Assembly: GCA_000004695.1 (NCBI GenBank)
Contig: CM000151.3
Span: forward strand, 5,632,001-5,696,000
Length of the DNA: 64,000 nt
Reading direction: 5' to 3'
Source of the DNA: Dictyostelium discoideum
Taxonomy: Eukaryota
Made by a program: the position numbers and the translations under genes. Under the pieces are notes generated by a model, which searched no databases, had not been told where the DNA came from, and saw only the letters and a list, made by a program, of their open reading frames with translations. Positions 3,001-41,077 of this stretch are shown here, one piece after another; the first letter of the stretch is position 1; every line of letters starts with the position of its first letter.

Positions 3001-6000
3001 TTATTAATTCTTTAATATTTTCAATTAATTCATCAAAACCTATATCTAATATTTCCAAGGATGACGATGATGATAATAAATGTTCACCAATTAAAGCAAC
3101 ATTTGACAAAAGTTGATGTTTTTTATGTTCATCATTATTAAATGATTTATAGAAACTTGTAATTGTTGATAATAATAAAGCTATTGTTTGTTTAATTTGA
3201 TATTCAAAAGATTCAATATTTGAAACATTTGAAGAACCATCAGCACTTGTTAAATGTTGAATGATTTGATTCAATTGTTCAATCTTGACTGGTACATCAG
3301 CAATACTAACATATTCCCAATCACATGTAAGATAGAAAGAGAATACAGTTTGAATATTTTGGAATAAACGTGGTGGACCATATCCAAATCTAATTGAATC
3401 ATAAATATTAACTTTACTACTACCATTATCGAGTGAAGCTGCGGCATCATTCTTTGATAATCTATATTTGTATTGTGGTAATGAATATTTACCAACATGT
3501 GAAATATCATTGAATGCATTATTCCATTGACTTGAATTATAAACATAAAGAATTGAATGAATAACTGATTGGAGTTCAATTATACCAATAGAAGCTTGTT
3601 CTTGCTCTTGTCCTTGTTCATCTTTTTCTTGGTTAGTTGTAACTTTTTCTAAATAATTATCAATCATCCAAATTAATTTTTGATAAAATGCTAAATGATA
3701 TAATGATCTTGGTATAGTTGATGATTTATATTTGTTTACGATATATTTTAATTCATCAATTATTGATTCAAATATGGTAATGATTGATTGATTCATTTTA
3801 CCATTTTCAATATCCATATGTTGTAACATTAATAATTTAACCAATTCAGAGATTACAAAAGTTTCTTTCAAATGAAGTGAATGATCAATTAATGGAGAGA
3901 TTGAAATGACTTGATGTTTAATTGATAATGGATCGAAATGAATTGATGTTGCATCACTAATCATAGAGTCATTTGAAATATCACTATTATCAAAATTTGT
4001 TGAAACTGGATTAAATGTTGAATTTAATTCAAATTGTTTTTGTTTTTCAATTAATTGTTTTAATTTATCGGATAAAGTTTGTGGTACCAATTCTAAGTTT
4101 GTAAGGAATTCACTAACACGATCCAACTCTTGTTGTTGTTGTTCTTGATTTTGATTATCAGAATTTAATTGATAATTTGCCCAATATAAAGTTGAAATTG
4201 CTTCAATTAAAGTTTTCTTCCAATCTTCATCGATTGCATAACTAGAATGTTTAATTGGTGATTCATTCTTGTTGAAATTGTATTGAACCTTTTCAAGAAT
4301 ACTAAGGAATTGACTATCCAATTGAACCAAATGATTTGATTTCATTACCATTGGATAACCACCAACTTTCCATAAACGATTATTTGAATTATCATTATTA
4401 TATTGATTTAATCCACTTGAGATCTTATCAATTAAAACTTGTAAACCAGTATTAATTAATAATGGTGATTCTGATTTTGATGTTAATGTTGTTAACTTAT
4501 TAATCTCTTTATAAATCCATCTCCAACGAATTATAAATTCACCCAAATTAAATTGATTTGATGGTAAATTAAATGTTGAATTCCAGAAATTATTTTTTAA
4601 TAAAATTAATTGATTAATAATTTGAATAGTTGAAAAAGTTGATTGTTGTTGCTCTGATGATGATAATTGAATTAACCATTGATCAATTTGTTCATCTAAT
4701 GATTTGAAAAGACGATAAATCATTGAAATAATATCTTGATGTGGTAATAAATCTTTACTCATCATTTTCTTTGTATAAGCTAATGATAATAAAATTACAG
4801 GTATTGATTTAATTGATTTAACTGAAAGTTGTTGACTTGCATTACCTTGTTGAACTTGTTTTAAGAATTTATTATATTCTTTCTCTTGTTTTGAACTTTG
4901 AATGAATAATGATAATAAAGATTTAATAATTTCCATATCATTTAATAAAACTTGATTAAATAAATCTTTAATTGGAATCATTGATTCAGAGCCGCCTGCT
5001 TCTTTAGTAATATAATTATCAACTTTTTCTTTAATTAATAAAAATAATGAATCATTATTTTTCCATTGATGACCTTGATAAATTAATAATTGTTTTGAAT
5101 CAATGAATGATAAATTAATCATTGATAGTAATTGTTCTAATCTTTTTTCAAAATCTTTATAACATGTATGATTGAATAATTGTTTCATACATGATATTAA
5201 TGTTGTTAATAATTGATTAATTGGTGAATCTTTTTCATTTTGATCCTTTAATGAATTTAAATATAAAACATAATTTTCATATTGTGATGAATTAATATTT
5301 TCAATTAGGAATTTTGCTGAAATCTTATAATTTGATTCATCTTGTTGTTGTTGTTGTGATGATGATGATGAAGATGATGATAAAGAATTCATTAATCTCT
5401 TTAAATAATATTCAAAGAATTGATAATTCATTTTCATTGTTGTTGAAATTGAATCAGTAACATAATCTTTACCTTTGATAAAGTGTGGATATATACCTAA
5501 AACTGTTTGATCTTCACATAGGATTGATTTGATTGCAGATTCATTGAAAATTGAATTAAAGATATTTGTAACCAATTGACGTTGAGTTAAATGTCTACGT
5601 GGACGAATGTAAATTTGTTCCATTGAATTACGAATTGAATTTAATAGTGAAAAACCTCTTTGTAATTGATCAAGTATTAATTTACCCCAATATAATAATT
5701 GTGAGAGTGTACATGGATTTTCAATTGTTGATGAAAGTTGAGTGAAAATTTGATTATGGAAATCAATCATTGTACGAGTTAAACTTTCCAATGGAATACC
5801 TAATGCAGTTAACAATTGTTGATTATCAAAATTATTTGATGGAGTTTCCATCAATGATAATTGGTCGGCTGCCATATAAATTTCAATACCACGATTTCTC
5901 ATAGCACGTGAAATCTCACCTTTTTTATCATCCATAGTTAAAAAGATACGGAAATTTGGATGTGGTTTAACAACTTTAACTTGACCATCAACCATACCAC

Positions 6001-9000
6001 GTTCGTTTAACATTAAAACACCGTCTTGTTCCAATAATGGATTCAAACGATCCAATACTGTTGGATTACAGAAATTAACATTATCAATTAATATCCATGC
6101 ACCAGTTTCCAATGCTTTAATTAATAAACCATCAATCCATTCAAAACAACCTGTAACACTTTCTTTTTCAATTGATTTAATACGTTGAATTTGTTGTCTA
6201 ACATCTTGAATTCTATTTAAATGCTCTTGATTATTATCTAAATTAAATTGAATTGATAATTTCTCCAATGCATCAACAATTGTTGATAAAAGATCCAATT
6301 GTTCAATTGTAATTAAACCAACACCACCACTACCAATGGTTGCACCATCTTGTTGAATTTGTTGTTGAGTTTGTTGAGTTTGTTTTTTAAATAAATTCCA
6401 AACTTGATGAATATCTTGAATTGATGAAATACAAGTTTTCATTAAATTATCATCATTTGAGTTAAAGTAAGTCATAATATGAGATGATACAATTGTGATT
6501 AATGATGATACTGATGATATGATACGTTTTTGATAACGTACTAAATCAATTTGTTCAAAACCACCTAAAATCTCTGTTGTATCAACTGATGAATTCATAG
6601 AGAATTCATAGAGTGTATTACCAGTTAATTGAGCTAATAAACGAATGGATGAAGTTTTTGAAGTTGATGTTGGACCAATTAAAATACTCATCCAATTCAT
6701 TTCAATACATTTCATAATATTCTCTAATGGATTTAATAAACGTTGAAGTAATTGAATATTTGATGAATTATCTAGTACACTACTATCAAATGATGATGCA
6801 CCACCATTTTGGACTCTTGGTAAAATTGATGAACCAATTTGTAAATATTCTGGTGAAATTGAGTAATGTGGTTGTTTATCGTAATTACAAATTGTTGGCA
6901 TCATATCAATAGATTGATCATTTTCATCACCACTGGTGGTGAAAACTCTTTTAAAAATTGTTAAAACATGTTCACGATCTTGAAGTGTTCTCATTCTTTG
7001 AAGATAGATTAAGTCAATGAATCTGGCAGGATTTGAAATTGATGTTGGATCTTTAACTATTAAATCACACCATCTAAAAGTATCACGAAGATTGAATTCC
7101 CATGGTGCACCTTTACGTGCAAATTTATGTTCAATCATTGATTCTTTAAACATTTGATGATTAAATTCAATCATACGTTCAATGGTTTTTGATGGTATAG
7201 TTGGATACATTGCTGTACTGATGAATAGAAGATCTTGTTGATTCAATTGGTCAATGAATACTTGAGTGAAACGATTAAGGAATGACTTTGGTAACCCTTT
7301 ACGACCACCACCTTGATGAAGTGGATTTTGGCAAGCGAAAACACGGAAATTTGGATGACATGCAAATGTTTTACCCAATTCTGGAATGTAAACTTCTGAA
7401 CGATGATCTAAACAAGAATTTAAACCCTCCAAAACGGTTTGTGATGCAAGATTTAATTCATCCAATAATACCCAACTACCATTACGTAATGCCTCTAAGA
7501 AAACACCATCTCTCCATTCAAATTGACCACCTGTACCACCTTCAACTGGTAAATCACTACCTAAAAGATCCATAATATCAGTTTGCTCTGAAAGATTAAT
7601 ACGAACGATTTGATTTCCCGATGCATTTGCAATAGCTGTAATCAATGAAGTTTTACCAACACCTGGTGAACCTTCCACTAAAATAGCACGTGGTAATTGC
7701 ATACCTCTAAGAACACGTTGTGCATTCTTACTAGTTGTTGGTGCTGATAAACTAAATTGAATCTTTGGTACATTTGATTCACGTACTGGAATATAAAATG
7801 GATGAATACCAAATCTATTCTCTTCTTTAATAATATTAGCAATTGATGATGACAATGATGATGATGATGATGATGTTGATAATAATTCTGTTTGTAATTT
7901 TAATTTCTCATCTTGTGATTCAATTTGATCAATTAAACGAATTAAACATGCCTCACGTAATTTTAAACCTTCACTTTCAGATGAAGAATTTGAACCCATA
8001 CCAAAACCATCTAATAATACTAAACAAGCACCATGAATATAAGATTCATTTGGTGAGAGTAATTGTTTATCCATACATAAATTCATAAAACTAATCCAAG
8101 ATAGAATATCACGTAAACTAATTACACGTTTATTCTTTTGAATCATTAATAGATATTCGATAAAGTTTAACATTAAACTACCTTTACCCTTTAATTGAGG
8201 ACTTGTGAATCTTTCTTCAATAATTTGTAATAAATCTTGATGACTACTAATTGCAGGTACCCAAATCTCAGTGAAACGATTTCTCATAGCTGGTGAAAGT
8301 TCTTTCTTACCAAAATCACCACCTGGATTCATTGTTGCTAAAATTCTAAACTCTTTATGACCTCTTAATTCTTCGATTTCGACACCACCTTTTTCAGCCA
8401 ATACTAATAATCTACTTGGTTCTAAAACTGAATTTAATCTTTCTAAAACTGCATCCTCTGCTAATGAAATTTCATCAATTAAGAAATAATCACCTTGCTT
8501 CATTGCTTCAACCAATGGGCCATCAACCCAATTAAATAATGAACAATAGGAACTATAAGTTTTATCGATTTCAATAGCTAATTGTTTCAATTGTTCAGTT
8601 AATAATGATGAATTTGAAACTTGTTTCCATGACTCAACAATTAATCTCTCCATAATCTCTTTAATTGGTAATTCATCGATGTTGTTATTCTCTTGTTCAA
8701 GTTTATATAGATTTAATTGAGATAATTGATTAAAATATTGTTTAACTAATGAATATAATTTTGATAAAACTTGATCACGACCTCTAACTGGACGCAAACC
8801 ACCAATGAAATCAGCAGTTTCAGTATGTTGATGACAATTGAGTATATGAAGTTTTTGTTTATTTAAAATTGAATATAATTGACAAATTGTAGTTTTAGAA
8901 CAACCAGTTTCACCAACTAATAAAATTGGTTCTTTATGTTCCAAACATTTACCAACCAAACTAAACAAACGTTTCATTGATCTTGTCCAAACGATTTTCT

Positions 9001-10757
9001 CTAAATGATTTGATTTTGATAATTCTGAATCATTCTCACTTAATAATTGTAAAAGTTTTAAAAACTCTGGTTTATCATCACATGAATAGATAGATTCGAT
9101 ATCTAATTTAATCTTTAAATGTTTTTCAATCACTTGTTTAATTATTAATTTCTCTTCATCTTTTCTTAAACGTTCAGCCAAGAGTTGGTAACCTGCAATA
9201 CCCAATTCTTCATAGGATGAAGGTTGACGTTCTGCCCAACGGAACAAATCACGGAATGTGATTGCACCATGTTTACCTGCGAAAACTTGGTTACTACCTT
9301 GTCTATTCAATTGAAGTTCTTTCATAATTAATACTAATTTCTTGCAATAGGATGGTGGTAATGCGCAACGTTTACAAAGAATCTCTTCAAGTTCATCCTC
9401 TGGAATATCGTCTACGTGTAATTCTAAGAAACGATTTCTAAAAGCACGTGATAACACTTTTCTACCACCATAAAGACCTGGTGGATTTTGAGTTGCGAAT
9501 AACATAAAGTGTGGATGTGGTCTAACGACTTCTTGAGTCTCTGGAATGAAAAGCTCTCTATTGTCATCCAATAGACGATTTAATGCCTCCAATACTTCAG
9601 ATGGTGCTAAATTCAACTCGTCCAATACTACCCAATAACCTTTACGTACTGCTTCCACTAAAATACCCTCTTGGAATACAAGTTTACCCTTATCATCACT
9701 TATATATTGACCAAGATATTCTTGAAGATCGGTATGTTCATGATTATTGATACGAATGAATCTATGACCAGTTCTAATTGCTAAATATTCAACCATTGAA
9801 GTTTTACCACTACTAGTTGGACCTTGTAAAAGTATTGGATGTTTACGTGATACCAATACTCTTGCAATATTTGAAAGATTAGATTTAATACTTGGTGTTA
9901 AAATATAATGAGTTGGTATAATTGGTTTCTCATTACCACATTCAATCCAAAACTGTTCAATTTTTACATAACTCTCTTCTGCGTTATTATTATTATTATT
10001 TGTTGTTGATGTTGGTGGTGGTCTATTTAATGGTTGATTATAAAGTTTAACTTCACCTTTTTTTATATATTGTTTAATTAATTGTTCCATCATTGGATAA
10101 GATGATTTATTTAATTGAGTAAGGAAACTCATACTTATACCTTCGAAAAGTGCACGTTGGAAACCAAATGATTTTGTAACATGTTTTGTATAATTCAATG
10201 CACGACTAAGTGTACGTAATGAAAAGATTGGTTTTTGATTTGACCCATCCAACATCTTATTTTGAGCGTCTTGTTTAGTTTTTAAATAAAATTCAACGAT
10301 ATCTTCAATTGGTGGATTTGGTACTAAATTTGATAAAACTGTTTTCACTACTAAACATAAATCACCCCTATTATCCAAATCATCGACATAGTACTCTGTG
10401 AATCTATTACGAATACCAGGTGGAAGATCCTTTTTACCAATATCAGTTGGAGGATTCATACATGCGAAAACCTTAAAATTTGGATGTCTTTCAACTGGTT
10501 CAACTTCACCTTTCTCTGTTAAAGTAATTGAACCACCATCGAATAAACCACTTAAACTCTCTAAAGTTTCTGAAGTTGCTAAATTCATTTCATCTAATAA
10601 TACCCAATAACCTTTACGAATACAATTTACTAATGAACCTTCAACAAAACTAAATGCAAAATTATTTTTTGATTTTTCAAATTGAATTGTTAATTTCTTT
10701 ATATCATTTGATAATTTTATCCATTTTTCTTTAACTTCACTTCTAATTGTACGTTTC

Positions 10758-10813
<56 letters not shown>

Positions 10814-13103
10814 TTCTTTTGTATTATTTGTTGTTGTTTGATCATCTTTTAAAACTTTATTTTCAACTAATTTAATTGCTTTATTTAATAAAGCAATGAA
10901 TTGTTTCCAATTTTTAGAGATGAAAGCTTTATCAATTTTCTCTAAGAAATCAGTATTATTTGATTCAGAGAAAGTCTTTTTAAACATTGAATCGAATCTA
11001 TTCTTTAGAGGTAAACAAAGTAAACGCATTTCTACTGGTTTAAAACCACCAATTAAATCTGAACTATCTGATTGTTGATTAAGATTCAATACTACCAACT
11101 TTTGATTTAATTGGTCGGCAATGTATTGAACTACCGATGTTTTACCAGTACCAGTTTCACCAACTAATAAAATTGGTTCATTAAATTGAATTGAGATTGA
11201 GATCTTTTCCATTAATCTCAATGAATTCATTGTGTGTGCAAAAACATTACCATGTTTAGTTACACCGGAATCTTGTTGACTTTGTTCAGTTGTGAATCTT
11301 GTATGTTTTTTACCATTTGAAATTTGAATTGAATCAGATTTCTCTAATGATTTTAATTTTGCACGACCTGTTGAAACTGATTCTTGGGTGATTATAATAG
11401 ATGGTTTATAAAGTTCAACATAGTAATTGATACGATCACCAGTTAATTCCCAAACTCTACCAATAACTTGAGTCAATTGTTTTCTTAAATTCTTTTTACT
11501 AATCATTGAACAAAAACAATCTAAAGCTTCAACAAAAACAATCTCTTGCATTGTTGATGTTATAATTTGTTGTGAAACATTTGTTAAATGTAATCTTTGA
11601 TTACAACGTCTAATCCACTTTATTAAATCTCTTGATGATATAAATCTACTTGATGGTATTATAAATTTCTCATTACTATTATTATTATTATTATTATCTG
11701 TATTATTATTGTTGTTTATATTATTTACATTTGCAGTATTTGCAATATTTGCAATACCAGCAACTTCATCAGTTGGTGATATTGAGATTGATTGATTTGA
11801 AATTACACGTAATAATAAATTAAAAGTTTCAATGAATTTTGAAATCATAACTGTTAATTGTGGGAATAGAGTTAATAAAACTTGTTTCATTTCAGTTGGT
11901 GATAAAGCTTCAATTACAACTCTAGTCCAAAGATGTGAGAGAATATTTGCATTTTGATCACGACTATGCGATCCAAACAAAGTTTGTGTTGCAAATAATT
12001 GGAAACCATTGGATGCTTCAATCACTTCGCCACGACCTGGTATGAATAAAGTTCTATTCTCTAATAATGGTATTAACACTGACAACACTTCAATTGGTGC
12101 TAAATCAATATCCTCAATTAAAATCCATCTACCTTCTTGAACGGCTTGTGTGAGTGCACCAGCTTGCCATTTAAATTCACCCGGTGTATCAGAGGTGATA
12201 TAAGTACCTAACAATACCTTTGAATCGGTTTGATCACCTAAATGAATTCTAATTATATTATCATTACCAGTGATTCTTGATAATTCTTCAATCATTGTTG
12301 TCTTACCAGAACCTGTAACACCCTCAATTAAAATTGGTTTACCTAAACCAACTGCAATTGCCAATGAATTTAAATTTTGTGATACAGTATTTGTATAAAC
12401 TAATTTTTGTACTTGTTCATCTTCCCCTTCTCCCTCTTGTTGTTGTTCTCCTCCTTTTTTTGATTTTACACTTGAACCATGTCCAATTTGTTCAAACTTT
12501 TTAAATAATAAAATACCACAAACATCAACAATTGATTTATGTAAATCTTGTTTTTGTATAAAAATATTTGGATATTTATTAATTAATTCTTCATCTTCTT
12601 TTTCTTCTTCTTGATTATTATTTATATTTTCTTTTTTATTGTTATTGTTATTATTATTATTTAAAAATAATTTTGATGATTCTAAATTTAATAATTCAGA
12701 CTCAATTTGAATAATTTGATTATGGTATTGTTTAAATAATGGTTTAATTTGAGTGATTTGATGATCAGGTACATTTAATACCATTGACATTGATTTAATG
12801 ACATACCATGTTATACGTTGACTTTTAATCTCTAATAATGAGAATAATGGTGTCCAATCCCATAATGATGAGAATAAACTTTTATTAAATGATAATAATC
12901 TAAAACAACTTTGAACTAATCCTAACCATCTCTCTTCTTTTTCTTCAGTAAAGTTTTTACATTGATTTATACTATCAAAAATATTTATACTATTATTACT
13001 ATTTTGGTGTTTTTTATAAAATTCAATTACAAGACTAAATAATAATAAATAAATAATAAATAATAATAAAAAAAAAAAAAAAAAAAAGAGGGTTAGAATA
13101 TAA

Positions 13104-18202: not shown

Positions 18203-20737
18203 TTATTTTCTACAAATTGAAATTGCTGAAAAGCAACCAACATTTTCATATGATTTTTGAGTCCTTGTTTTGACATAATTATATAAAATTGGTGTTAAAC
18301 AAGAAAATGTTGGATTTTTAAATAAAACAGTAGATTTTATAATTTCAGTGGTGGTTTTAATTGTTGTTTCAACTGTAGTTCTAATACATGATGAAGTTGT
18401 TGTTGTCACTGTTGTTGATGTAGTTATTAATGGTTCAATTGTCTTTGGTAAAAATGTATAGTTTACTATGTCACCGTCGATGATTTGAATTTTATCTATA
18501 AATTCTTTTTTTACTTTATTTTTACTTGCAATATATGTCGAAATATTTAATTGAAATTCATTATTATTAAAAAATTGGTTTAACAAATTCCACATTACTA
18601 AATCTGATCCACAAAGTTCATTATTTGATGAATATAAAAACTTAAGTGTTAATGCAACTGTTTTACTTTTGTCATTTATAATTTCTAAAATTTCATCTTT
18701 TAAAAGTTTGATTAAATTAATTTGAATTTCCTGTACTTGTTTCTCATTCATTGATGTTTCTATTGATGTAGGATTGTTTAAATTTAAATAGCCATATTCA
18801 TTATCATACAATGTAAATGCATTTGTTTGGTATCCAACATATGTTTGCCTTTGTTGGAAATCTTTTTGAAGAAAAAAAACAGTTTGGGTCAAATATTCAT
18901 TTTGGTTTGATGATTTTGGATTATTTTGAAATTCTAAACCTGGAAAATAAAATTCGAATAATAATTTATAAATTTTCAATGTATTCTGGTACATATCAAC
19001 TGTTGAATATCTAACAGGAGTTGTTTCATTTTGACATAACATATTGCCTAATAAATAATTAAAGTTAAGATAACTTTGAATATAATTTTTAGGACCAAAA
19101 ACTAAATTTGAAAATTTAATTTTTGATAAAATAAAACTATTCCAATGTTTGCAAACCAAATGTAAACTTTGACAAAATGAGAAAAACTGTTCATCACCTT
19201 TTGAATAATCAATTGAATAATTTAAAATTTTTAAAGTTAATAAATTTGAAAGTTTAAAACTGTTTACTGCTATCTTTGTTTCAACCACATGTTTATGATT
19301 TAATTTTTGTTTTTTTGATACAATATATGGTATTTGAATAAATGATGGATTATTGGAAACATTTGAATTTTCATTTGTAATAATAATCACTGAAAATATG
19401 AGTGAGCTCTCATACTCACTACGATGATTCAAATTGCATGATCTAAAAATTCCATGATTTCTTAAATTTTGATTTGAAAATAACAATACATTTGAAAGGT
19501 TTATTTCATTAATATCATATACATTGAAAATTATATTGTGTGATTTAATGAGTGATACCATTTTTATATTATTTGTTCCATAATGATTTATTAATGAGTC
19601 GTACATATATAAGTCCATACCACTTAATTTTTCAATCCAATCAGAGGTTGTATACAAATCGTTCAAAATAATTCCTATTTGGTTACCTTTGTATATAAGT
19701 TTATCAAATTCAATTATCACCATTTTCATTGCAATATTTCTAAAACCAATACTTTCTATGGATGGTGATCCCAATCGTTGCATTTTAAATGGATCCATTG
19801 TAAACATATCAAATTCTAGTAAACCAAAATATGGGTTTCGGTTGTTTGAATTTATAAATACTGTAATATCATTATCAGGTAAAACGCAATACTTTATTGA
19901 GTATTTATTATAATCAAAAAACATACCACTCTTTGAAATAGATATTTTTTCAAATAATTTTGATCGATTATGTCTTATTTCAATTTCATCACCATCATAT
20001 CCTATTGGAACAAATAATTTACCCACAAATCTTTTTCCATTTTCAACAGTTACCCATTTATTAATTATTTGATTTTCTTGTTGTATTCCATCCAATTCAA
20101 CTCCATTTGTTGTGATATTATTGTTTGTTTGTTTAAATATATGTAATTTTATAAAATCAACTTGTCTTTGGTTTGTACTGTACATACTATCTATTGAATA
20201 TGTTACCCAATAACCATCCTTATAATTAGGAATAACCAAATCATAATGATTCTCAATGATTTTATAATTGTCATTTTTATTTATCGAAGTTGCAATCTTT
20301 AATAGTTCATGAAAATTTGGACTAAATATTTTACCACATTTTGTAAAATTAATATAAATGTATGGATTTATACAAAATATTGTTTTGTTTTCTTTTATTT
20401 TTTTTTCTTGTCCTTCTATATCTTCATGATCTTCATCATCATCTTCTTCATAGTCGTCATCGTATATAATTGGAGTATTAATAAAACTATCAATTGTGGT
20501 TGCCTTACTACTATTTCTTGAATTATTATTATCGAATTCATCATTATCAACAGTTTCTATACAAAAGGATACTTTATTTGGGAAATAAAGAAAATTCATT
20601 AAACTATTTATTTTTATATTATCAATGCTATTATCATATAAATCAATTAAACTAAAAATATTTGAATGATTTTTTTTTTTATTTATTGAATCTATAATTG
20701 AATCTCTTATTTTAAGATAACTATTTAAATAATCCAT
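18203..20737 (-). CDS. Large orphan protein, 844 aa; acidic DE-rich patch and Thr-rich C-terminus; no recognisable domain.
   Basis: Single uninterrupted minus-strand ORF, in a divergent pair with the GIY-YIG gene. Codon usage is less AT3-biased than neighbouring housekeeping genes (CGA, TTG, GGA, CCT, GTG present). Confidence 0.55.
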   Translation of the reverse strand: MDYLNSYLKIRDSIIDSINKKKNHSNIFSLIDLYDNSIDNIKINSLMNFLYFPNKVSFCIETVDNDEFDNNNSRNSSKATTIDSFINTPIIYDDDYEEDDDEDHEDIEGQEKKIKENKTIFCINPYIYINFTKCGKIFSPNFHELLKIATSINKNDNYKIIENHYDLVIPNYKDGYWVTYSIDSMYSTNQRQVDFIKLHIFKQTNNNITTNGVELDGIQQENQIINKWVTVENGKRFVGKLFVPIGYDGDEIEIRHNRSKLFEKISISKSGMFFDYNKYSIKYCVLPDNDITVFINSNNRNPYFGLLEFDMFTMDPFKMQRLGSPSIESIGFRNIAMKMVIIEFDKLIYKGNQIGIILNDLYTTSDWIEKLSGMDLYMYDSLINHYGTNNIKMVSLIKSHNIIFNVYDINEINLSNVLLFSNQNLRNHGIFRSCNLNHRSEYESSLIFSVIIITNENSNVSNNPSFIQIPYIVSKKQKLNHKHVVETKIAVNSFKLSNLLTLKILNYSIDYSKGDEQFFSFCQSLHLVCKHWNSFILSKIKFSNLVFGPKNYIQSYLNFNYLLGNMLCQNETTPVRYSTVDMYQNTLKIYKLLFEFYFPGLEFQNNPKSSNQNEYLTQTVFFLQKDFQQRQTYVGYQTNAFTLYDNEYGYLNLNNPTSIETSMNEKQVQEIQINLIKLLKDEILEIINDKSKTVALTLKFLYSSNNELCGSDLVMWNLLNQFFNNNEFQLNISTYIASKNKVKKEFIDKIQIIDGDIVNYTFLPKTIEPLITTSTTVTTTTSSCIRTTVETTIKTTTEIIKSTVLFKNPTFSCLTPILYNYVKTRTQKSYENVGCFSAISICRK

Positions 20738-20963
20738 TTAAATTTTTTAAAACTATTTTATTACAAAAAATTAAATATTAAAAAATTAAAAAAATAACTT
20801 AAATTTTTTTTTTTTTATTAATCAAAGCAAATACTTACGTTAAAAAAAACATATATATATTATAATAAATTGAATTTTGGAAATTTTATTTATTTATTTT
20901 TGGTGGTAATACCACATGTGGGAAATAATTAATAAAAAAATACAAAAACAAAAAAAATTAATT

Positions 20964-21007
<44 letters not shown>

Positions 21008-21319: not shown

Positions 21320-23053
21320 ATGCTCAATAATTATATTCACAAATTAGTTTATATTTTTTTTTTTTTTTTTGTTTCATTGAAAGTTTCATATTGTAATTTG
21401 CATTATTTAGGATTAGATTGGAATCAAAATGTTGGAGGTAAATGGATTTGTGTTGATAAAAATTCACAACCTAATATCAAAGATTTTTTTTATAAATATA
21501 ATGGTGGTTTTCATAAGTATATTTATAAAACTTATAATTTTTCATATCCCAATAAACCAACAGGAAATGGTGTATATGTTTATTTTTCCCAAAATGGTGA
21601 AATAGCCTATATAGGAAAATCGTGGCAGAAAAAATTTAACGGGATTTATGATAGGATTGCAGCCCATCAAAATAAAGATTTGTTTGGCCAACCAAAAAAT
21701 AAAGATGAAATTCTAAAAGAAATAAATGGTTTACTTTCACATGATGAGATTCAAAATATTGAAAAAAGAGAGAAAATTACTAAATATTGTTACCTACCAA
21801 TTCCCAATAACTCTCCAAGAGAATTAGCATATTATATAGAAGGTAGTTTACTCTCAATTTTCCATTCTTCTATTAATTCTTGGCAAAACGGAGGCCCTTC
21901 TGGTGATACGGGTATTTTTAATCGTTTTAGAATTCCAATAATAAGATATACCACAAATGAATATTCTATGTTGTATACTGCAAATGATGAAAATGTTAAT
22001 AATTACTATTCTGTATTTGAGAATCCGGACTTTTATAAAATTTTTTATTACTTCAAGAATTATCAAAAAGTAGAAGATGATTTGGAAAATTGTGAACAAG
22101 AATTAAAAATAAATAAAAATGAATTGAAACGAGAAATTTCGTCAATCCAAAAATTTTTGAAATCCACCAATTTGGAGGATGCATTCCATAATTTTAGAAT
22201 TGGATATATAAAGGGTCACTCGAAAAACAGTAATCAAGCAGTACCAGGGGTTACTTTTACTAATATGCTGTCAGCTCTGTTTTATAATGTTAATTTGTTG
22301 CCAAAGTCTAATGAAAATGTTGAAATGCTTATTAAAATTTTAGAAAAAGTACAAAATGATGGAAATAAAAATAAAGCTAATGAAGTTTTTTGTCCTCAGG
22401 AAAAATCTTTAAATTATAAAATTCAAACTTTAGAAAAGAACAATGAAGATGCTAGAATAGTAAATAATCAACTTAATTCGACGATTAATTCAAATGAAAT
22501 AAAAAACAAAGACATAATTTCAAAACAAGAAAATGAAATTATTACTTTAAAAATTGAAAATCAAAAATTAAAAAGTAACATTACTCTATTATATGGTGAA
22601 ATTTCAATTTTAGAAAAACAATTAAATGGTAACATTACTCAATTAAATGGTGCAATATCAATTTTAGAAAAACAATTAAATGGTAACATTACCTTATTAA
22701 ATGAAGAAATTTCATCATTGAACTCAATAATTACTGATTATGAAAGAAATAATACAATTTTGACTCATCAAGCAGAGCTTGATTCATTTGAATTAAAATC
22801 ATATGATCAATGTATTATTGATAGAAATAGATACAAAATGGAATCAGAAAAATCACCATTTAATTTAAAACAATACCCATCGTTGGTTAAAATTGATGAT
22901 GTTTCACAATGTCCAAAATATAAATGCTTAAAAAGAAAATCATTAAATGAGTGGACTATTGGACTAAACATCCCAGCTTTTTGTAGAGAAAGTCGATATG
23001 ATTGTTCGTTGTGTTACAAATACATAGAATGCAGTTTTTCTGATGAATTTTAA
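21320..23053 (+). CDS. GIY-YIG nuclease-domain protein, 577 aa. Layout: N-terminal hydrophobic signal/anchor, GIY-YIG domain (about aa 80–200), coiled coil with tandem about 20-aa repeats, Cys-rich C-terminus.
   Basis: Motif GVYVYFSQNGEIAYIGKS-(x12)-R-IAA-H followed by YIEGSLLSIFHSSINSWQNG matches GIY-x10-YIG…R-x3-H…E…N of GIY-YIG endonucleases (I-TevI/SLX1 type). N-terminus is MLNNYIHKLVYIFFFFFVSLKVSYC. Repeats: EISILEKQLNGNITQLNGAISILEKQLNGNITLLNEEISSLN. C-terminus: CPKYKCLKRK…CRESRYDCSLCYKYIEC. Codon usage is strikingly atypical (frequent TCG, CAG, GGG, AGG, GCC, GGC, CCG, ACG, CTC). Confidence 0.6.
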   Translation: MLNNYIHKLVYIFFFFFVSLKVSYCNLHYLGLDWNQNVGGKWICVDKNSQPNIKDFFYKYNGGFHKYIYKTYNFSYPNKPTGNGVYVYFSQNGEIAYIGKSWQKKFNGIYDRIAAHQNKDLFGQPKNKDEILKEINGLLSHDEIQNIEKREKITKYCYLPIPNNSPRELAYYIEGSLLSIFHSSINSWQNGGPSGDTGIFNRFRIPIIRYTTNEYSMLYTANDENVNNYYSVFENPDFYKIFYYFKNYQKVEDDLENCEQELKINKNELKREISSIQKFLKSTNLEDAFHNFRIGYIKGHSKNSNQAVPGVTFTNMLSALFYNVNLLPKSNENVEMLIKILEKVQNDGNKNKANEVFCPQEKSLNYKIQTLEKNNEDARIVNNQLNSTINSNEIKNKDIISKQENEIITLKIENQKLKSNITLLYGEISILEKQLNGNITQLNGAISILEKQLNGNITLLNEEISSLNSIITDYERNNTILTHQAELDSFELKSYDQCIIDRNRYKMESEKSPFNLKQYPSLVKIDDVSQCPKYKCLKRKSLNEWTIGLNIPAFCRESRYDCSLCYKYIECSFSDEF

Positions 23054-25919: not shown

Positions 25920-27177
25920 TTATACAATTGAAGATTCAGGATTTGAACTTACTGAAGCTGATAATGGTGAAGGATTTTCAAAATGATTTGAAGATGTTGT
26001 AGTTGAAGAGGAAGGTGAGAAAAATAATTTATGTTCATATTTACTTCTAATATATTTATCTCTTTCTTCCATTGTTGAGTCAGGAGTCAGTTTTTTAAAT
26101 TGTGGAGGTATATTATATTCATAGAGTTGATTTACTTTATCATTACCGCCGGTATCTCTAAAGAATTGAATCATATTTCTATCCCAAATATCCATTGTTA
26201 CAGAACGTACCTTTGAAAGATGAACACCTAAATTACGATGAACACCACTACAATTGATACAAATGAAAACACCCAAATTAATTGATGCCCACAATGGTGA
26301 TGGACAACCACAATCTGAGCAATATTTATTATCCTCTTGTTCCAATAGTTTGTTTAGTGATTCTTTATTTTCATCCAACATTTTTTGAACACCATCTTCA
26401 ACATCATCTTCTTTCAATCTCATACTTAAACGATTACTACTATTTACACTGCTACTACTAGTATTGCTATTTGTTCTTGAATGACTACTATGACCACCAC
26501 CACCACTACCACCACTACCACCACCACCAGTTTTATATTTCAAATAAGCTTCCATTGAAATGGATTGAGCAGACTGTATACAAGTTATCCAATTTAACAT
26601 TTGTGAACCAGAAACACAAGAGAAATGTAAAGTTTTATCGGTAGTGAGTACTTGGAATGTATATTTATCGTTTGTGGATTTTACAACCTTTGCAGAGCAG
26701 AATATGATTTGAATTGATTTCTTTGGTTCTTTCTTTGATGTCTCTTGTTGTTCTTGTGATTTATAGATGGAAATTGATTCTTGATTTAAAACCACCCATC
26801 TTTGTTTCCATTTACTAATTAATTTACCACCTTGAACTCCAAGATATCCTTTCTTAAATCCATTCATTTCATCATCTGCACTACTACTATCGAATGTTGA
26901 TGAACTTGGTGAACCTGGTGCTAATGAACCATTGATTTTATTTGGTGTTAACATTTTATTTACTGAAGGTGAACCACCATTACTACCAACCTTTTTATGT
27001 GTTGGTACAAATCCACTATGCGATTTCTCTGTAGTTGTTGTAGTTGTTGTAGTTGTTTCTCTTGGTGATCCTGGTGATACTGTTGATAATGGTGGTAAAC
27101 TATATCTTTGATTTGATTTTTTAATTTTCTATTATTAAAAATAAATAAATAAATAAATAAAATTATTAATATAAATA

Positions 27178-27235
<58 letters not shown>

Positions 27236-27691
27236 TTTAGTTATAACTATATTACAACATACATTAACTTGTGGTGACAATGAAGATGTATTTGAACTAT
27301 TTAATGAACGTAAAAAGAAGATAACACCACGTAATGATACGATCCAAGCGAAATATTCAAATTCTTCAAATGGTGGAGTTGATAAATAACGTGTTACAAT
27401 TGGACCATTTTCATTGTATTGACCATTTCCAAATACCAATGTTGCTGTTAATTGGAAACAATTATCTTTAATCTCTTTTTCTTTAACTTGACCTTTGTCC
27501 AATGATAAAACTTCAATCTCTATTTCATCTTTATTACTCTCATAAATGAATAAACAACCCTCTTTTAATACACACCATCTTTGATTCCAATTATCTCCTC
27601 CAATCGTTGGTGAAATATATTGTGTTGCATCTGATCTTAATATATTTAAAAATCCTCGTTTCTCTGGAACTTCCAATGAAATACCTGGCAT
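25920..27691 (-). CDS. ArfGAP-domain protein with two PH domains (PH–PH–ArfGAP), about 545 aa. Exons 27691..27263 and 27128..25920; the 134-nt intron carries (ATT)n.
   Basis: Exon 1 PH domain: GFLNILRSD…NWNQRWCVLKEGCLFIYESNKDEIEIEVLSLDKGQVKEKE…CFQLTAT, ending PQVN|GTATGT. Exon 2 PH domain: KKGYLGVQGGKLISKWKQRWVVLNQESISIYKS…KYTFQVLTTDKTLHFSC. ArfGAP zinc finger: CSDCGCPSPLWASINLGVFICINCSGVHRNLGVHLSKVRSVTMDIWD. An in-frame stop 8 codons upstream of ATG 27691 fixes the start. Confidence 0.8.
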
Positions 27692-33839: not shown

Positions 33840-36800
33840 ATGAATGATTCAAATAGCAGCAATGATAGTTGCAACACCGAAAATAATACCTTGACAGCCA
33901 CTAAAAATAGCATCAACAACACAACTACAACCACAACCACACCTAATAACAATGTTAATTGTTTAAAAACCAGTGGTAGTATTAAACTATCAGCTTCATC
34001 AGTACCATTTATACCAGGCTCATCAGCATCATTGCCATCTATTTTATCAAATCAATATAAATTAGCGGCATCCAATAATGTATCAAATAATATTATGATG
34101 ATTTCCACACCAATCATTTCTTCAGCACAACAACAACAACAACAAGTACCACCACCACAACAAACTACAACAACAACAACAGCAACAGCAACAGCAATAA
34201 CGCCAACACCTATTACAACATCACAATCAACATCATCCTCAATGTTAAATTTACCATTAAAAGTTGGTAAAGAATCTATTGAAACATTGTTTAGGAATAG
34301 ATTTCATCCAAAAAATAATATTAGAGAAACTGTTTTATCATCATTACAAAGTATATTAATACCTGATCTATCGGATACTATTAATAATACAAAAGAGAAT
34401 ATCGAATATTTTTATAATATGATCATTGATGAAAATAATTATATTCTAAAGTTATTATTATTAAATATAATAAATGATACAAAAAGAAATTTAGTAGTTT
34501 ATAATTATAATCAACAACATCAATTACCAATTCAAAATACATCATCACCAAATACTCCATCATCAACAACAACAACAACAACTACATCAACTAAACCATC
34601 TAAAAGAGGAGATAAAGAAAGAGAAAGAGGTAGAAGAAATAAAGATAAGATTAATGAAAAACAATTACAACAACAGCAATTACAACAATTACAATTACAA
34701 CAACAATTAGATCATGAAGGTTCTTCACTTTATTTACCATTTTCAAGTTTATTATCTTTTATTAAACCTGATAAACAACAACAACCACAACAATCACAAC
34801 AATCACAATTAAATGAAATTGATCAAATGGTTAGACCAAAATCATTACCAAAAGATGATAATGATAGTGATAATTTTAATATTAGAGTTTTGGAGTATAA
34901 TTTAAAGTTATTGATAAAGATTTATTTCAAGGTATCAATGTACCAAGATTCAATTAAAACTCATATCTTTGATTTATATATACAAATTAATCAAGCAATC
35001 TCTGAACAACAAAGACAATTACAAGAGAAAGAGAAAGAGAGTAAAACTTCAAAACCAATACCACAACCAATCATTTCATTGGTAATTCCAACGGTATTGG
35101 TATCGATTGGTGATATCATAAAATATAAATATGCAACACCTTCACCACCAAATCTAACACCAACAACAACTACTAAAATGGAGGAAGAGGAAAGAATCAT
35201 TAATACTATATTAATTAATGAATTTAAAAAAACTGATGTTTCAATCATTGAGTCAAATTTATACCTTTTCGAATGTATTTTATCAATTAGTGTTAGTAAT
35301 GAACCAACAATTGTAGTACCAAATACAACAACTGCAACAACTGCAACAACTGCAACAACATCAAATACTTCTACAGCAGCAGCTGCAACAACGACAACAC
35401 CAACACTATCAACATCTTCTTCATCATTATCACCACCAGCATCAACACAATCATCATTATCATTATCATCATCATCATCAGCAGTGATAGCACCAACAAC
35501 AGTAGGTTATATTTTCAAATTTAATAAAGAATTATTTAGAAAGTTAATAGCATTAGTTTATTCTACAGTAGTTCAACATCAAATAACCTTATCTACTGTA
35601 TTTACAACATTGGTTTTAAAAGGTTATTTAAATGAGGATCAAATTCAAAAATTATTAAATATTACATTATTTAAGTAAGTAATTTTAAATATAATCATTA
35701 AAGATATAATGATAGAATAAAGAATATATATATTAATACATTTACATTTTAATATATAGATTATCAGATCCAAGTGAACAAGTTAAATTAAGTTATTTAA
35801 CATTATTAAGTAAGATGGTATCATATTTCGATTTAAACCATCAAAAGAATTTAAATCATAAAGTTAATGACATATCATTACCTTATAAACTATTGATAAT
35901 GGGATCAACAAGTCAACCATTTTTTAATGGTCAAATTTTTAAAAAGATATTTGATTGGATCATGGGAATTGGTAAAGATCAACCATCTTTTGATTCTTTA
36001 ACAAAGTATCTAATCGATTTATTCGATAGTTTTAATGTAATCTCAATATTATTCAATGAACAAAATAAAATATTATCACAACAATATTTAGCTGCTCAAT
36101 CAACTATGATAACTCCACCATTAAGTTTACATCAAATTGATGATAGAAGTATGTAAAAACTATAACAATTTTTATTATTATTATCATCATCACCATTATT
36201 ATTAATTAATTAATACTAATCATTTATTATTATTTATTATTTATTATTATTATCATCATCCCCTAGGAAAATTTGAAACATTAATATCAAAATCTGATGA
36301 ATTAATTTGGTTTTGGACAGTTTGGGAATGTAGTAAATTTTGTATTGCCAATAGATTGAAATCACCATATGGTAGTGCATTTCAAACGTTTGAAATCTTT
36401 GAAAAGTTATTATTACAATTGAATAAGGATAGAAGGGATTTTAAAAAGATAAAGATTTTATTACATTTTATGGAATCTATGGAGAAATTAATTTTCTCCA
36501 CTGTTAATGGATCGGTTCTAGTACAATCATTAAACAATAAGGAGACTCAATTCTTTAGACATAACGTTAGAGTTTGTGAAGATTGGTTCTCTAGAATTCG
36601 AGTAAATCTATTGAAAGCTAGTATTCTATCAAGTTCAACACCAGATATCATTAGACATGCTTCACTTAGAGTTCAAGATATTCAAGCTAATAGATTCGTT
36701 CTAGATTCAAATACAGCTCATTTTGAATTGGAATTTTGTATATTACATTTAGCAAATGCCCTACAACAATTAAATGAAACTGAATCATTACAAGGTTTAT

Positions 36801-36849
36801 CAAATTGGTCTGATATAAATTTAAATAATAGTGATAATAATAATAATAA

Positions 36850-36880
<31 letters not shown>

Positions 36881-37419
36881 TCAACATTCTTTAATAATGG
36901 TAATATTAATAAATATACATTAAAATTACCATGGATGAAAGGTGTTATATTAAGAAGTAAACAAAAGTTTGAAGAATCAATTAGTTCATTATTGAGTGTA
37001 CCACCAATGTTGGAATCAAATTCAATATCATTTCCATTCGTATTGGAACAAATTATTAAATCTTATTTAGATATTTCAAATTTTACAGAGGTTGAACAAT
37101 TTTTACAAAATTATCAAAATCAAATTCAACAACAATCAAATTCTTTAATAATCTATAAAGATACATTCATTAAAACTTTGGGTTCATTCTATCGTGGTGA
37201 AATGGAAGAAGCTCATGCTTTTGCAAAGAGAACTGAATCTCAAAATCATATATTACAAAGAGAACAATTAGGTTTAGGTTTATTAGGTAATCAAATTATG
37301 ACTGATGAATTATTATTATCAATTATGGTTAATCAAAAAGATTTATTTAATAATACAAATATTATTAATAATAATAATAGTGGTGGCAGTAGTAGTGGTA
37401 CAGCAACAGCAACAGCAGT

Positions 37420-37475
<56 letters not shown>

Positions 37476-40400
37476 ATACAAATAATGATATTATTGGATT
37501 TAGTAATAATATTAATAGTATGTTAAAACTAACAAAGAATAATATATTAAAAGCATTAAATTATTTAGGATTAGAATCAAATGTTCAAACATTTCAATAT
37601 TTAACACAATTGAAAATTATGGATGAAATTGAAAATGGTGTTTATAATAGTAGAGTGGTACCAATTAATAATCAAATTGGATTCTTGGAGAGATTAAGAA
37701 GAGTTAGAGGTCATATTTCAAATACTAAACAACGTTCTGATATTCTTCTAAGTAATATACCATTGACTGAAAAAATGATTAAACTATCAAGAAAATTTGA
37801 AAATTATAAATTTAGTTCAAAATTATTAGATACAATTTTAGAATCTCATTCATCTTCCTATTATTTAGAACGTTGTAAATTAAAATATTTAAATGGTAAA
37901 CAAACTGAAGCAACTTTAGATTTAATTAAATATGCACATCGTGATATAACAATACCATCATCATCGACAACAACAACGACAACGACGACAACAACAACAC
38001 CACCATCAACATCATCAAATACTGCTACAACAACAAATAATATAAATATTGATGAATTATCAACACAAAAATTTAAAGTTTATACAGAAATTATTAAATA
38101 TTTAAATTCAAATCCATCAATTATTACAGAATTATCATCATCAAACTATTCTATACCTCAAGAACAATTAAATCCAGAATATTATTTTAAGAAAGCAACT
38201 TTAACTAAACCTGAGAATTCAAAATTATGGATAACCTATGCTGATTGGATTTTAAATGAAAAAAGTAATATATCTGAACAAAATGATGAAGAATCATTAA
38301 ATGGTGGTGGTAGTGGTGGTAATGAAAATTCATCAAATGAAATGTTAAGACTTAAAAATACAAATACTAATGAACTAAAAACAGCAGTTGAAGCATATTT
38401 CCAATTTTTAAAGTATAGTATGTTGGATGGTAATAGTAATGGTGGTTTAAATATTAGGGCAACACTTAAAATATTGAATATTTTAGTTTGTTCAGGTAAT
38501 AAATTGGTTGAAACATTTGAAAGATGTCTAAATGAATTAACTTCAACTCGTCCTTTCACAATTATTATACCACAATTATTTGCAAGATTAAGTCATCCCG
38601 ATACATTTGTTCAAAAATATGTTGTTGAAATTTTAAATAGAATTGGTAGAGATAATCCAAATAAAATAGTTTATCAAACTATTGTTGGTTCTTTAAATTT
38701 TACAAATACAAATAATAATAATAATAGTTCTTGTGCTGCTGCCACTACTGATGATGGTTTAGATATTGAATTATTACAAAAACAATATCCAAATTATTTA
38801 CAAATTTTAAATATTAAAGAGAATCTATTAAAACATTCAGAATTATTAGTAAAAGAGACAGAGACACTCATTTATCAATTAGGTAAACTTACAACATTGT
38901 GGGATGATAATTGGCAATATTTCATTGAACAAATTCAAGGTTGGGTCTATATTAATACTAAACAATGGAATGATGACTATCAACAATTGAAAGCCACAAT
39001 AAAGAATCCAACCATACTAAAACATACTCTAAAGAAAAAGAATCAGGAATTACTTCAACCAATTTATGAAAAGTTAAAACGTTTAACTGCTGCCACCGTT
39101 TTATCAGTTTGTAAAACTCCACATGAAAAATGGTTTACCAAATGTCATTTCGAAACTATAAACAAAACAATACGTGCATTTGAAAAACAAAATAAACCAA
39201 CCTCTCCATTCGATGTACTTCATGATTTAATAGCTGAATTTCAACAATATCGTTTAATTTCTTTAAGTTTATCATCAGTTAATCCATCATTAGCTTTATT
39301 TAGACCAACTATAACTCAAATGCCTGGTACTGATTTAAATTATTTTAATATTAATCATATTCATCATCATCATCATCATCATAACCATCATGGTAATAAT
39401 AATAATCAACATTCAACATCAAGTGGTAATTTACCAATTCAAAATCAAGTTACAATTCAATTAATTAAACCAACCATTTATTTATTACCAACAAAAACTA
39501 AGCCAAAGAAAATGGCAATGCTTGGTAGTGATGGTAATCTTTATTATTATCTTTTGAAAGGTCGTGAAGATTTACATTTGGATGAAAGAATTATGCAATT
39601 ATTAAATGTTGTCGATCAATTATTAATGAATGATAAAAAACCAACTTTAAAACTATTGAGAACTAGAAATTATTCAGTTATACCTCTATCTCAAAGTTCT
39701 GGTTTAATTCAATGGGTTGAAGGTGCTGTACCATTATTTTCAATTTATAAAAATTGGTATAAAAATGATCAAGTTTATAAACAACAACAACAGCAACAAC
39801 AACAATTACAACAGCAACAACAGCAACAACAACAACAACAACAACAACAACCACAACCACAACAACAACCACAACAACAACCACAACAACAACCACAACA
39901 ACAACCACAACCACAACAAAACTCAACTACAACTTCAAATATAGTAAATAAACCAATTATAGCTAGACCAGTTGATATATTCTATGCAAAGATTACACCA
40001 TTATTAGAAAAGGCTGGATTAAATTTCATGACACCAAGATCAGAATGGCCAAAAGAAATATTAATTCAAGTACTCAATGAACTAATGCAAGAAACTCCAA
40101 AATGGATTCTACAAAGGGAGTTATGGTTTTCAAGTAGCTCTTCATCAGAGTTATTCTTAAAAACTCAAAGTTATAGTAGATCTTTAGCATTGATGTCAGT
40201 GATTGGTTATATGATAGGTTTAGGTGATAGACATTTAGATAATATTTTATTAGATTTGAAAACTGGTGAAATCGTTCATATCGATTATAATATTTGTTTT
40301 GAAAAAGGTGCTGAATTGAAAATACCAGAGAGAGTACCATTTAGAATGACCCAAATCTTTGAATATGCCTTAGGTTTAACTGGTGTTCAAGGAACTTTTA

Positions 40401-40707
40401 GAGAAACAAGTATACAAATTATGCATTTGTTACGTAAAAATAAAGATATCCTATTAAATTTATTGGAAACTTTTATTTATGACCCACTATTTGATTGGAA
40501 ACATTCAAATAAACAAACAAATAATAATAATAATAATAATAATAACAATAATATGAATCAAGCAGCTGGTGAACAAGAATCTATAGAAAAGAAACAATCT
40601 TCAAATAATTCAAGTAATCCTATAATTTCAACACCAACAAAATTACAACAACAACAAAAATTGCCAAATAGCCCATTATCAATTTCTTCAAATAATACCA
40701 ATTCCAC

Positions 40708-40777
<70 letters not shown>

Positions 40778-41077
40778 GATCAAGATAGTGATTCAAGTCA
40801 AAGTCAAGAAGATGAAGATAATAATGTTGTTGAAGGTGAAGGAGGTGAAGGAGGTGAAGGTGATATTGATGAATTGAATTTAGTTCAAGATTCCTCAAAT
40901 GGAAAGGATGCATTTAAGAGTATCCAAGGTTTAACTGTTGTCAACCAAGTGAGACTAAAATTAGAAGGTACAGAAAAGAAACTATCAATTCCAGATCAAA
41001 TTGATCTTATTATAAGAGAATCCATGAATGTTGAAAATCTATCCTCCACTTATGAAGGTTGGTCTCCATGGGTCTAA
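33840..41077 (+). CDS. smg1: SMG1, the nonsense-mediated-decay PI3K-related kinase, 2344 aa. Exons 33840..35674, 35760..36148, 36267..41077.
   Basis: Kinase domain: LPTKTKPKKMAMLGSDGNLYYYLLKGREDLHLDERIMQLLNVVDQLL…SGLIQWVEGAVPLF…MSVIGYMIGLGDRHLDNILLDLKTGEIVHIDYNICFEKGAELKIPERVPFRMTQIFEYALGLTGVQGTFRETSIQIMHLLRKNKDILLNLLETFIYDPLFDW. This is a near-verbatim match to the SMG1 catalytic core. A poly-N-rich insertion follows, then the C-terminal FATC (…ENLSSTYEGWSPWV*). Introns are GTAAGT/GTATGT…AG with consistent phases (2→1, 1→2). Confidence 0.92.

Follow-up and report, generated by a model that had tools for sequence, protein, structure and literature searches.

We report on the open reading frame (ORF) at 21320..23053 on the + strand of a 64,000-nucleotide stretch of Dictyostelium discoideum DNA, hereafter the window, which we read, with a probability of about 0.7, as a genuine lineage-restricted, single-exon gene encoding a very divergent but residue-complete GIY-YIG domain. 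The ORF comprises 577 amino acids (aa) plus a stop codon; it is complete and has no internal stop, and the gene proposed here in a first-pass annotation thus proved to be real, uninterrupted, and exactly placed. An exact-sequence look-up identified it as D. discoideum AX4 DDB_G0275783 (EAL69642.1 / XP_643463.1 / UniProt Q553N0), on an 8.48-Mb contig. NCBI names the product "hypothetical protein", and UniRef names it "GIY-YIG domain-containing protein", which implies that the sequence passed some public rule. The GIY-YIG name is already in public annotation, and the central observation is thus not new. A literature search found no paper mentioning the gene, and a search for GIY-YIG together with Dictyostelium returned nothing relevant.

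The GIY-YIG-like domain and the layout of the protein

The superfamily (Pfam PF01541, clan CL0418) is defined by a domain of ~100 aa that combines GIY and YIG motifs with an Arg in its centre and a C-terminal Glu, and that folds into three strands and three helices; the UvrC-like lineage typically has an Asn motif, which Slx-1 lacks (PMC1564403). The ORF contains the pattern G84-V-Y86 ... Y97-I-G99-K100 ... R112-x3-H116 ... E174-x11-N186. The two motifs of the hairpin have a Tyr-to-Tyr spacing of 11, compared with ~10-11 residues in the superfamily, and the central Arg is supplied by R112; this residue and H116, at the +4 position that is usually His or Tyr, lie in the helix predicted to follow strand 2. 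E174 and N186, which are invariant, fall in or after the predicted helix following strand 3, at a UvrC-like spacing, both of them beyond aa 150, where the Pfam match given below stops. Their x11 interval equals that of E76 and N88 in UvrC, as Truglio et al. reportedly numbered these residues in 2005. All seven functional residues (Y86, Y97, K100, R112, H116, E174, and N186) are invariant in three orthologous sequences that are only 63-68% identical in the GIY region.

Profile and structure comparisons point to the same segment. The excised domain matches Pfam PF01541 (expectation value, E, 0.0062; 17.3 bits), as do two of the three orthologues. The three best NCBIfam matches were weak (E 0.03-0.07), and all of them fell on the GIY-YIG segment of UvrC or of a Cho-like DEDD-exonuclease fusion. 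When a profile of the three orthologues was compared with 53 UvrC N-termini by hhalign, the hairpin was aligned (P 2.6e-4); this was in local mode, the global mode having given a meaningless 8-column alignment. An AlphaFold model of aa 78-250, built from 4 alignment rows, has the order beta1-beta2-alpha1-alpha-alpha-beta3-alpha, and it places R112 and H116 in alpha1 and E174 in the helix that follows beta3; this order, in a model of low confidence, matches the three strands and three helices of the published fold (PMC1564403). Compared by Foldseek with 350,542 PDB chains, the model had UvrC GIY-YIG domains at ranks 1-9 (best E 0.044, probability 0.87) and I-TevI at rank 20, and several GIY-YIG endonucleases were among its top matches in a viral structure library, none of them significant. 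On these convergent lines, each weak, aa 82-190 are very probably true homologues of the GIY-YIG domain, and within the superfamily they resemble the UvrC/homing-endonuclease side and not SLX1.

What weighs against this reading, apart from the damage to sister genes described in the next section, is that the lines of evidence for the fold, taken one at a time, all stay below conventional thresholds. The first-pass annotation had called the core "textbook"; all of the canonical residues are indeed there, but the PF01541 score of 17.3 bits is below the curated gathering score of 22.6, and a full-length Pfam scan of the protein gave no GIY-YIG match. The only full-length matches, to Mu DNA-binding and NUDE_C, were weak and were judged to be spurious. 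The hhalign probability was just 42%, covering 22 columns. No GIY-YIG chain was found among PDB sequences with either phmmer or the three-orthologue profile (the best matches, CSN8, FGF13, and VC0508, at E ~0.4-0.6, were judged to be due to chance), and a PHROGs search yielded no match. Both AlphaFold models are of low confidence, with a predicted local distance difference test score (pLDDT) of 44.7 for aa 78-250 and of 34.6 for a single-sequence model of aa 28-258, which was unusable. Two spacings are also unusual: the YIG-to-Arg distance exceeds that of UvrC or I-TevI by ~5 residues, and the Arg-to-Glu distance is 62 residues vs ~37-48. Finally, it is not usual in the GIY-YIG superfamily for a signal peptide to precede the nuclease.

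The features of the ORF, all on the + strand, are as follows.

21320..23053, + strand: complete ORF, 577 aa, exact match to the AX4 protein
21320..21394, + strand: signal-peptide-like N-terminus, aa 1-25, as its layout suggests
21354..21374, + strand: poly-T tract inside the ORF, encoding FFFFF
21398..21559, + strand: fast-evolving segment, aa 27-80 (dN/dS 1.3-1.7)
21563..21889, + strand: divergent GIY-YIG-like nuclease domain, aa 82-190 (Y86, Y97, K100, R112, H116, E174, N186)
21569..21622, + strand: GIY...YIG beta-hairpin GVYVYFSQNGEIAYIGKS, aligned to UvrC by hhalign
21890..22069, + strand: most conserved segment, aa 191-250 (dN/dS 0.16-0.21), no family match
22070..22390, + strand: middle region, aa 251-357, no family match
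22391..22789, + strand: coiled-coil-like region, aa 358-490 (hydrophobic periodicity 3.55 residues)
22566..22714, + strand: 54-nucleotide (nt; 18-aa) tandem repeat, 2.8 copies
22790..23050, + strand: Cys-rich C-terminal module, aa 491-577, with 7 invariant Cys, no family match

The hydrophobic N-terminus noted in the first pass is present, as the sole hydrophobic segment of the protein: aa 9-20 (LVYIFFFFFVSL, 12 residues), preceded by a short n-region containing K8 and followed by KVSYC. At 12 residues, the segment is too short to be a membrane anchor, and the layout of aa 1-25 would suit a cleavable signal peptide; this layout is kept in the orthologues (..LSNC/K.., ..VSNC/N..), the exact residues are not. 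The tandem repeat at 22566-22714 has 86% matches and the unit ISILEKQLNGNITxLNGx, with three NIT sequons, and the hydrophobic periodicity of aa 360-490 is 3.55 residues; the repeats described earlier were found, in a region that is coiled-coil-like, with a unit of 18 aa rather than about 20. The Cys-rich tail is likewise borne out, with seven Cys within the final 80 residues (498, 531, 536, 555, 562, 565, and 571) that are invariant across the orthologues. The presumed mature protein has 11 Cys in all, every one of them invariant wherever the orthologues are comparable, and seven N-x-S/T sequons, three of which are the NIT of the repeat. Pfam scans matched no known family in aa 191-250, in aa 251-357, or in the Cys-rich tail, and a word-index search with the C-terminal 92 aa gave no match.

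Orthologues, frame lesions, and constraint

DDB_G0275783 was found in the D. discoideum species complex alone. Its only homologues are P0001, from another D. discoideum assembly, and P0002 and P0003 with P0004, from two assemblies named 'Dictyostelium cf. discoideum', a distribution that fits the second alternative offered in the first pass, namely a very weakly expressed lineage-specific gene. All of the homologues lie directly downstream of an orthologue (76-100% identical) of the 844-aa gene that neighbours the ORF in the window, and synteny is thereby seen in three other assemblies. The synonymous divergence (dS) from AX4 to the genomes sharing this position is ~0.35-0.58.

The reading frame is not intact everywhere. 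In the D. discoideum assembly GCA_054883475.1 (L003), the poly-T tract (~17-21 nt) is one T shorter and the frame is shifted, this being the only difference in 1,954 nt; the tract may truly vary in length, with the long ORF turned off by the shorter form, or the homopolymer may have been misassembled. One cf. discoideum genome (L001) has a 4-nt deletion after codon 124, and the other (L002, GCA_054859235.1) has a 7-nt deletion near codon 65 together with a GAA>TAA change at codon 168; its annotation gives a 398-aa protein that begins at a new Met at position 185. It is because of the lesions in those assemblies that the gene models of the relatives look odd. The spliced models of P0001 and P0002, which skip part of the GIY region, were rejected: each 'intron' bridges the frameshift of its own assembly and consists of sequence that is coding and in frame in AX4, and in frame in other genomes.

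Constraint varies along the protein, as judged from Nei-Gojobori estimates of the ratio of nonsynonymous to synonymous divergence (dN/dS), which are to be read with the caveats that the genome is extremely AT-rich and that the assemblies are drafts. In aa 27-80, the ratio is 1.3-1.7, with confidence intervals (CI) that include 1. Purifying selection on the GIY region is seen in the comparisons with AX4 (0.37-0.39, bootstrap CI 0.21-0.69), whereas between the two lesion-bearing genomes the value for this region is 0.70 (CI 0.38-1.35). The strongest conservation in the protein is in aa 191-250 (0.16-0.21), and the C-terminal 327 codons (aa 251-577) give 0.21-0.35 in all pairs. These values suggest that it is the C-terminal two-thirds that have been constrained throughout, and that in the sister lineages constraint on the N-terminal half has been weaker and may have been absent. 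The GIY domain may be dispensable or decaying, because both cf. discoideum genomes carry lesions and the dN/dS between them is 0.70.

The divergence between AX4 and L001 is itself a mosaic, with a dS of 0.04-0.18 in codons 358-577 and of 0.35-1.4 in codons 81-357, a pattern that might have arisen by introgression or gene conversion in the 3' third. The 3' part of the gene has a dS of 0.47-1.1 between AX4 and L002.

The rival explanation that survives best, and that partly overlaps the reading preferred here, takes aa ~185-577 as the functional unit and the GIY-YIG-like half as the remnant of an old domain capture, now being lost and intact in AX4 by accident. The N-terminal frameshifts and the stop in both cf. 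discoideum genomes speak for it, as do the 398-aa L002 protein starting from Met 185, the one-T difference that breaks the frame in another D. discoideum assembly, and the fall in dN/dS from >1 in aa 27-80, and 0.70 in the GIY region between lesion-bearing genomes, to 0.16-0.35 downstream. However, the GIY-region ratio of 0.37-0.39 in comparisons with AX4 has a bootstrap upper bound of 0.69, and the catalytic-type residues are all invariant even in the lesion-bearing copies. The lesions, moreover, lie in A/T-rich, partly homopolymeric draft sequence and may in part be assembly errors, although the GAA>TAA change is not of that kind. We consider a decaying relic unlikely, if by no means far-fetched.

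An origin of the motif by chance or convergence in a Tyr/Asn/Ile-rich protein is decidedly improbable. The gene product would then be a coiled-coil glycoprotein, secreted or lumenal, that bears a Cys-rich knob and is unrelated to nucleases, and the signal-peptide-like N-terminus, the 7 sequons, and the 11 invariant Cys would all suit an extracellular protein; the sub-threshold scores of every profile and structure comparison, the low confidence of both models, and the non-canonical spacings are also as this explanation would have them. The hairpin pattern alone arose in 229 of 200,000 shuffles of the protein (~0.1%), and about a dozen chance cases are thus expected per proteome. By contrast, the whole pattern arose in only 3 of the 200,000 (1.5e-5), a frequency that refers to a pattern defined after the sequence was seen. 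Chance would also have to account for the agreement of five methods on both the superfamily and the segment, the invariance of seven functional residues at 63-68% regional identity, a predicted secondary-structure order that fits the fold, and an independent public annotation that carries the same name.

Codon usage, genomic neighbourhood, and origin

The first-pass annotation preferred a recent acquisition of a viral or bacterial homing-endonuclease-like gene, and argued from a non-native codon usage in sharp contrast with that of nearby genes. Neither claim was supported. The eight codons that were listed as foreign account for just 18 of the 577 codons, and the GC content at third codon positions (GC3) is 0.163, vs 0.141 in the neighbouring gene and 0.054-0.170 in the 18 other window ORFs of >=150 aa. 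By leave-one-out synonymous-codon likelihood, the ORF is second-lowest of 19 and inside the native range, the PH/ArfGAP gene being lower, and its fraction of G-ending codons (G3, 0.071) is equalled by two other ORFs. What had been seen is evidently a small local fluctuation, in which G/C-ending codons cluster over codons 91-120 (GC3 0.27). The GC content of the ORF is 25%, like its surroundings, in a window that ranges over 12-33% per kb.

A donor was sought widely. An exhaustive HMMER search with aa 28-250 against 1.84 billion protein representatives returned only proteins of the D. discoideum complex and one bacterial repeat protein, and no relative was found by tblastn against 50,697 phage records, or in scans of the IMG/VR viral contigs and of the JGI metagenomes. 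The bacterial protein (P0005, E 8.7e-5) was rejected as a relative: its score adds up five repeats that contribute 5-8 bits apiece, and its best single domain has an E of 2.6e5. It is a 790-aa protein from a metagenome-assembled genome (L004, 3001-5373), has no Pfam family, and consists of five or six tandem units of ~130 aa ending AYLGSSWEPRF..LHD, which matched the query via repeated short motifs only; its gene adjoins a ClpB-like AAA gene and a TIR_2 gene.

Recent transfer is accordingly unsupported, because the composition is native, no donor was found, and the chromosomal neighbours are ordinary genes (PH/ArfGAP and an SMG1-type kinase). It is hardly credible as an explanation: a distribution limited to the D. 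discoideum complex, a closest family likeness to bacterial UvrC/Cho and phage-type GIY-YIG proteins rather than to SLX1, a slightly raised proportion of G-ending codons, and a codon likelihood second-lowest of 19 can be cited for it, but codon usage, GC3, and overall GC are those of the host, no donor-like relative was found among the proteins, phages, viral contigs, and metagenomes searched, the position is syntenic in genomes at the dS from AX4 given above, there is no mobile-element or intron context, and the remainder of the protein is of the low-complexity, coiled-coil kind typical of Dictyostelium. The gene also lacks the marks of a mobile homing endonuclease, being single-copy, syntenic in four assemblies, set among ordinary neighbours, and without phage or viral relatives. 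The domain would instead have been captured long ago from a bacterium or mobile element, or have diverged to an extreme degree from an ancestral gene, and not stem from a recent event.

The 844-aa neighbour (18203-20737, - strand) belongs to no Pfam family, yet it is 76-80% conserved in the cf. discoideum genomes. It is divergently oriented with respect to the ORF, and a poly(A) tract of ~50 nt (20957-21006) lies in the intergenic region between them; such tracts are typical of Dictyostelium intergenic DNA. L002 has two copies of this neighbour gene, at 2387-4912 and 10472-12985, which flank the locus and each share ~75% identity with the protein encoded in the window; in the stretch examined, AX4 and L001 have a single copy. 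Elsewhere in the window, a very large ORF (2-12790, - strand) runs to 4,263 aa and is part of a 5,977-aa gene model in L003. The PH + ArfGAP protein is encoded by two ORFs (25923-26954 and 27233-27691, both on the - strand) that are probably exons of one gene, and the SMG1-type PI3K-related kinase, with a FATC domain, lies at 36470-41074 (+ strand).

Known GIY-YIG proteins and a possible function

The closest comparison is with UvrC/Cho (PDB 1YCZ, 1YD6; PF01541), which provides both the top Foldseek PDB match and the top, weak, NCBIfam match. The hairpin GVYVYFSQNGEIAYIGKS aligns with UvrC GVYRMYDAGGTVIYVGKA, including the Lys after YIG; an Arg-x3-aromatic/His on the next helix is shared, the Glu-x11-Asn pair of the query may correspond to that of UvrC, and the low-confidence model has the same beta-beta-alpha...beta-alpha order. 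However, identity is ~16-20%, the confident alignment is limited to 22 residues, and the query has a 5-residue insertion before the Arg and an insert before strand 3 that is ~20 residues longer. Against the UvrC/Cho family models (TIGR00194 and relatives), it scored 11.8 bits vs a cut-off of 285, over model positions 9-31 only. The query has no UvrB-binding, Endo V-like, or (HhH)2 domain, and it is therefore not an excision-repair protein; unlike UvrC/Cho, it comes from a eukaryote and has a coiled coil, a Cys-rich tail, and an N-terminus that resembles a signal peptide.

I-TevI-type homing endonucleases share the catalytic pattern, including the His at +4 from the Arg (R27/H31 in I-TevI) and probably the Asn motif, and are similarly modular, with a nuclease domain, a long linker, and a C-terminal Cys-containing module. 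Besides I-TevI at Foldseek rank 20, phage GIY-YIG endonucleases were among the top viral structure matches. By contrast, the query is single-copy and syntenic, with no intron, intein, or free-standing mobile context; Pfam scans found no NUMOD or IENR1 modules in it, and tblastn gave no phage match.

SLX1, which joins a GIY-YIG/URI domain to a RING/PHD-type zinc finger, resembles the query in being a eukaryotic protein with a GIY-YIG-type front and a Cys-rich end. The SLX1 family, however, is without the Asn motif (PMC1564403), and the query has N186. There was no SLX1 structure among the top 50 Foldseek matches, the Cys spacing of the query as read from its sequence (C-x4-C-x18-C-x6-C-x2-C-x5-C) misfits RING/PHD, and the query has ~300 extra residues plus the hydrophobic N-terminus.

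We thus picture the protein, from its N- to its C-terminus, as a signal-peptide-like N-terminus, a poorly constrained spacer, a putative divergent GIY-YIG domain of UvrC/homing-endonuclease type that keeps the Asn motif, a conserved segment, a long coiled-coil-like stalk with the 18-aa repeat, and a 7-Cys C-terminal module. Its fold, catalytic activity, secretory targeting, and oligomerisation are all things that we infer. Were the domain active, one active site would nick one DNA strand by the usual one-metal GIY-YIG mechanism: Y86 and Y97 in the hairpin and R112 and H116 in helix 1 would sit around the scissile phosphate, where they would stabilise it and both position and activate the water that attacks; the one divalent metal ion would be held by E174, and N186 would have a structural role, bracing the fold. 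Two or more such single-strand cutters would be joined through the coiled coil, and the Cys-rich tail could be a disulfide-bonded or zinc-binding binding module. Catalytic activity of the predicted domain is a tentative proposal, with the odds somewhat against it, and entry of the protein into the secretory pathway, as judged from its N-terminus, could equally well prove right or wrong. A long shot that would combine the two is a secretory or endolysosomal GIY-YIG DNase, disulfide-bonded, glycosylated, and oligomerised through its coiled coil, which evolved from a captured bacterial or mobile-element domain and might, e.g., degrade prey or extracellular DNA; we know of no GIY-YIG enzyme with such targeting.

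The first-pass description of the ORF, its motif, its hydrophobic N-terminus, its repeats, and its Cys tail stands, that of its codon usage does not; of the interpretation, a probable GIY-YIG domain in an unusual domain combination remains, foreign origin and a nuclease "system" do not. "Candidate novel nuclease system" was too strong for a single gene that is in the AX4 annotation, was automatically named GIY-YIG, and has no partner genes or mobile-element context visible. We take DDB_G0275783 to be an uncharacterised member of a known nuclease superfamily, limited to one lineage and unusual in its architecture, and not a new system. As it stands, it is one hypothetical, auto-named gene without literature or partner genes, whose nuclease-like half shows signs of dispensability in sister lineages, and the main value of the analysis is a corrected record, in which the codon-usage and horizontal-transfer argument fails. 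To our knowledge, an accessory architecture of signal-peptide-like N-terminus, coiled coil, and Cys-rich tail has not been described for the GIY-YIG superfamily. If the domain is active, eukaryotes would have in this protein an uncharacterised GIY-YIG member that belongs to neither the SLX1/ANKLE1 nor the mobile-element group, and the gene would also illustrate, on a small scale, how a catalytic domain is acquired and lost by a young gene of restricted lineage.

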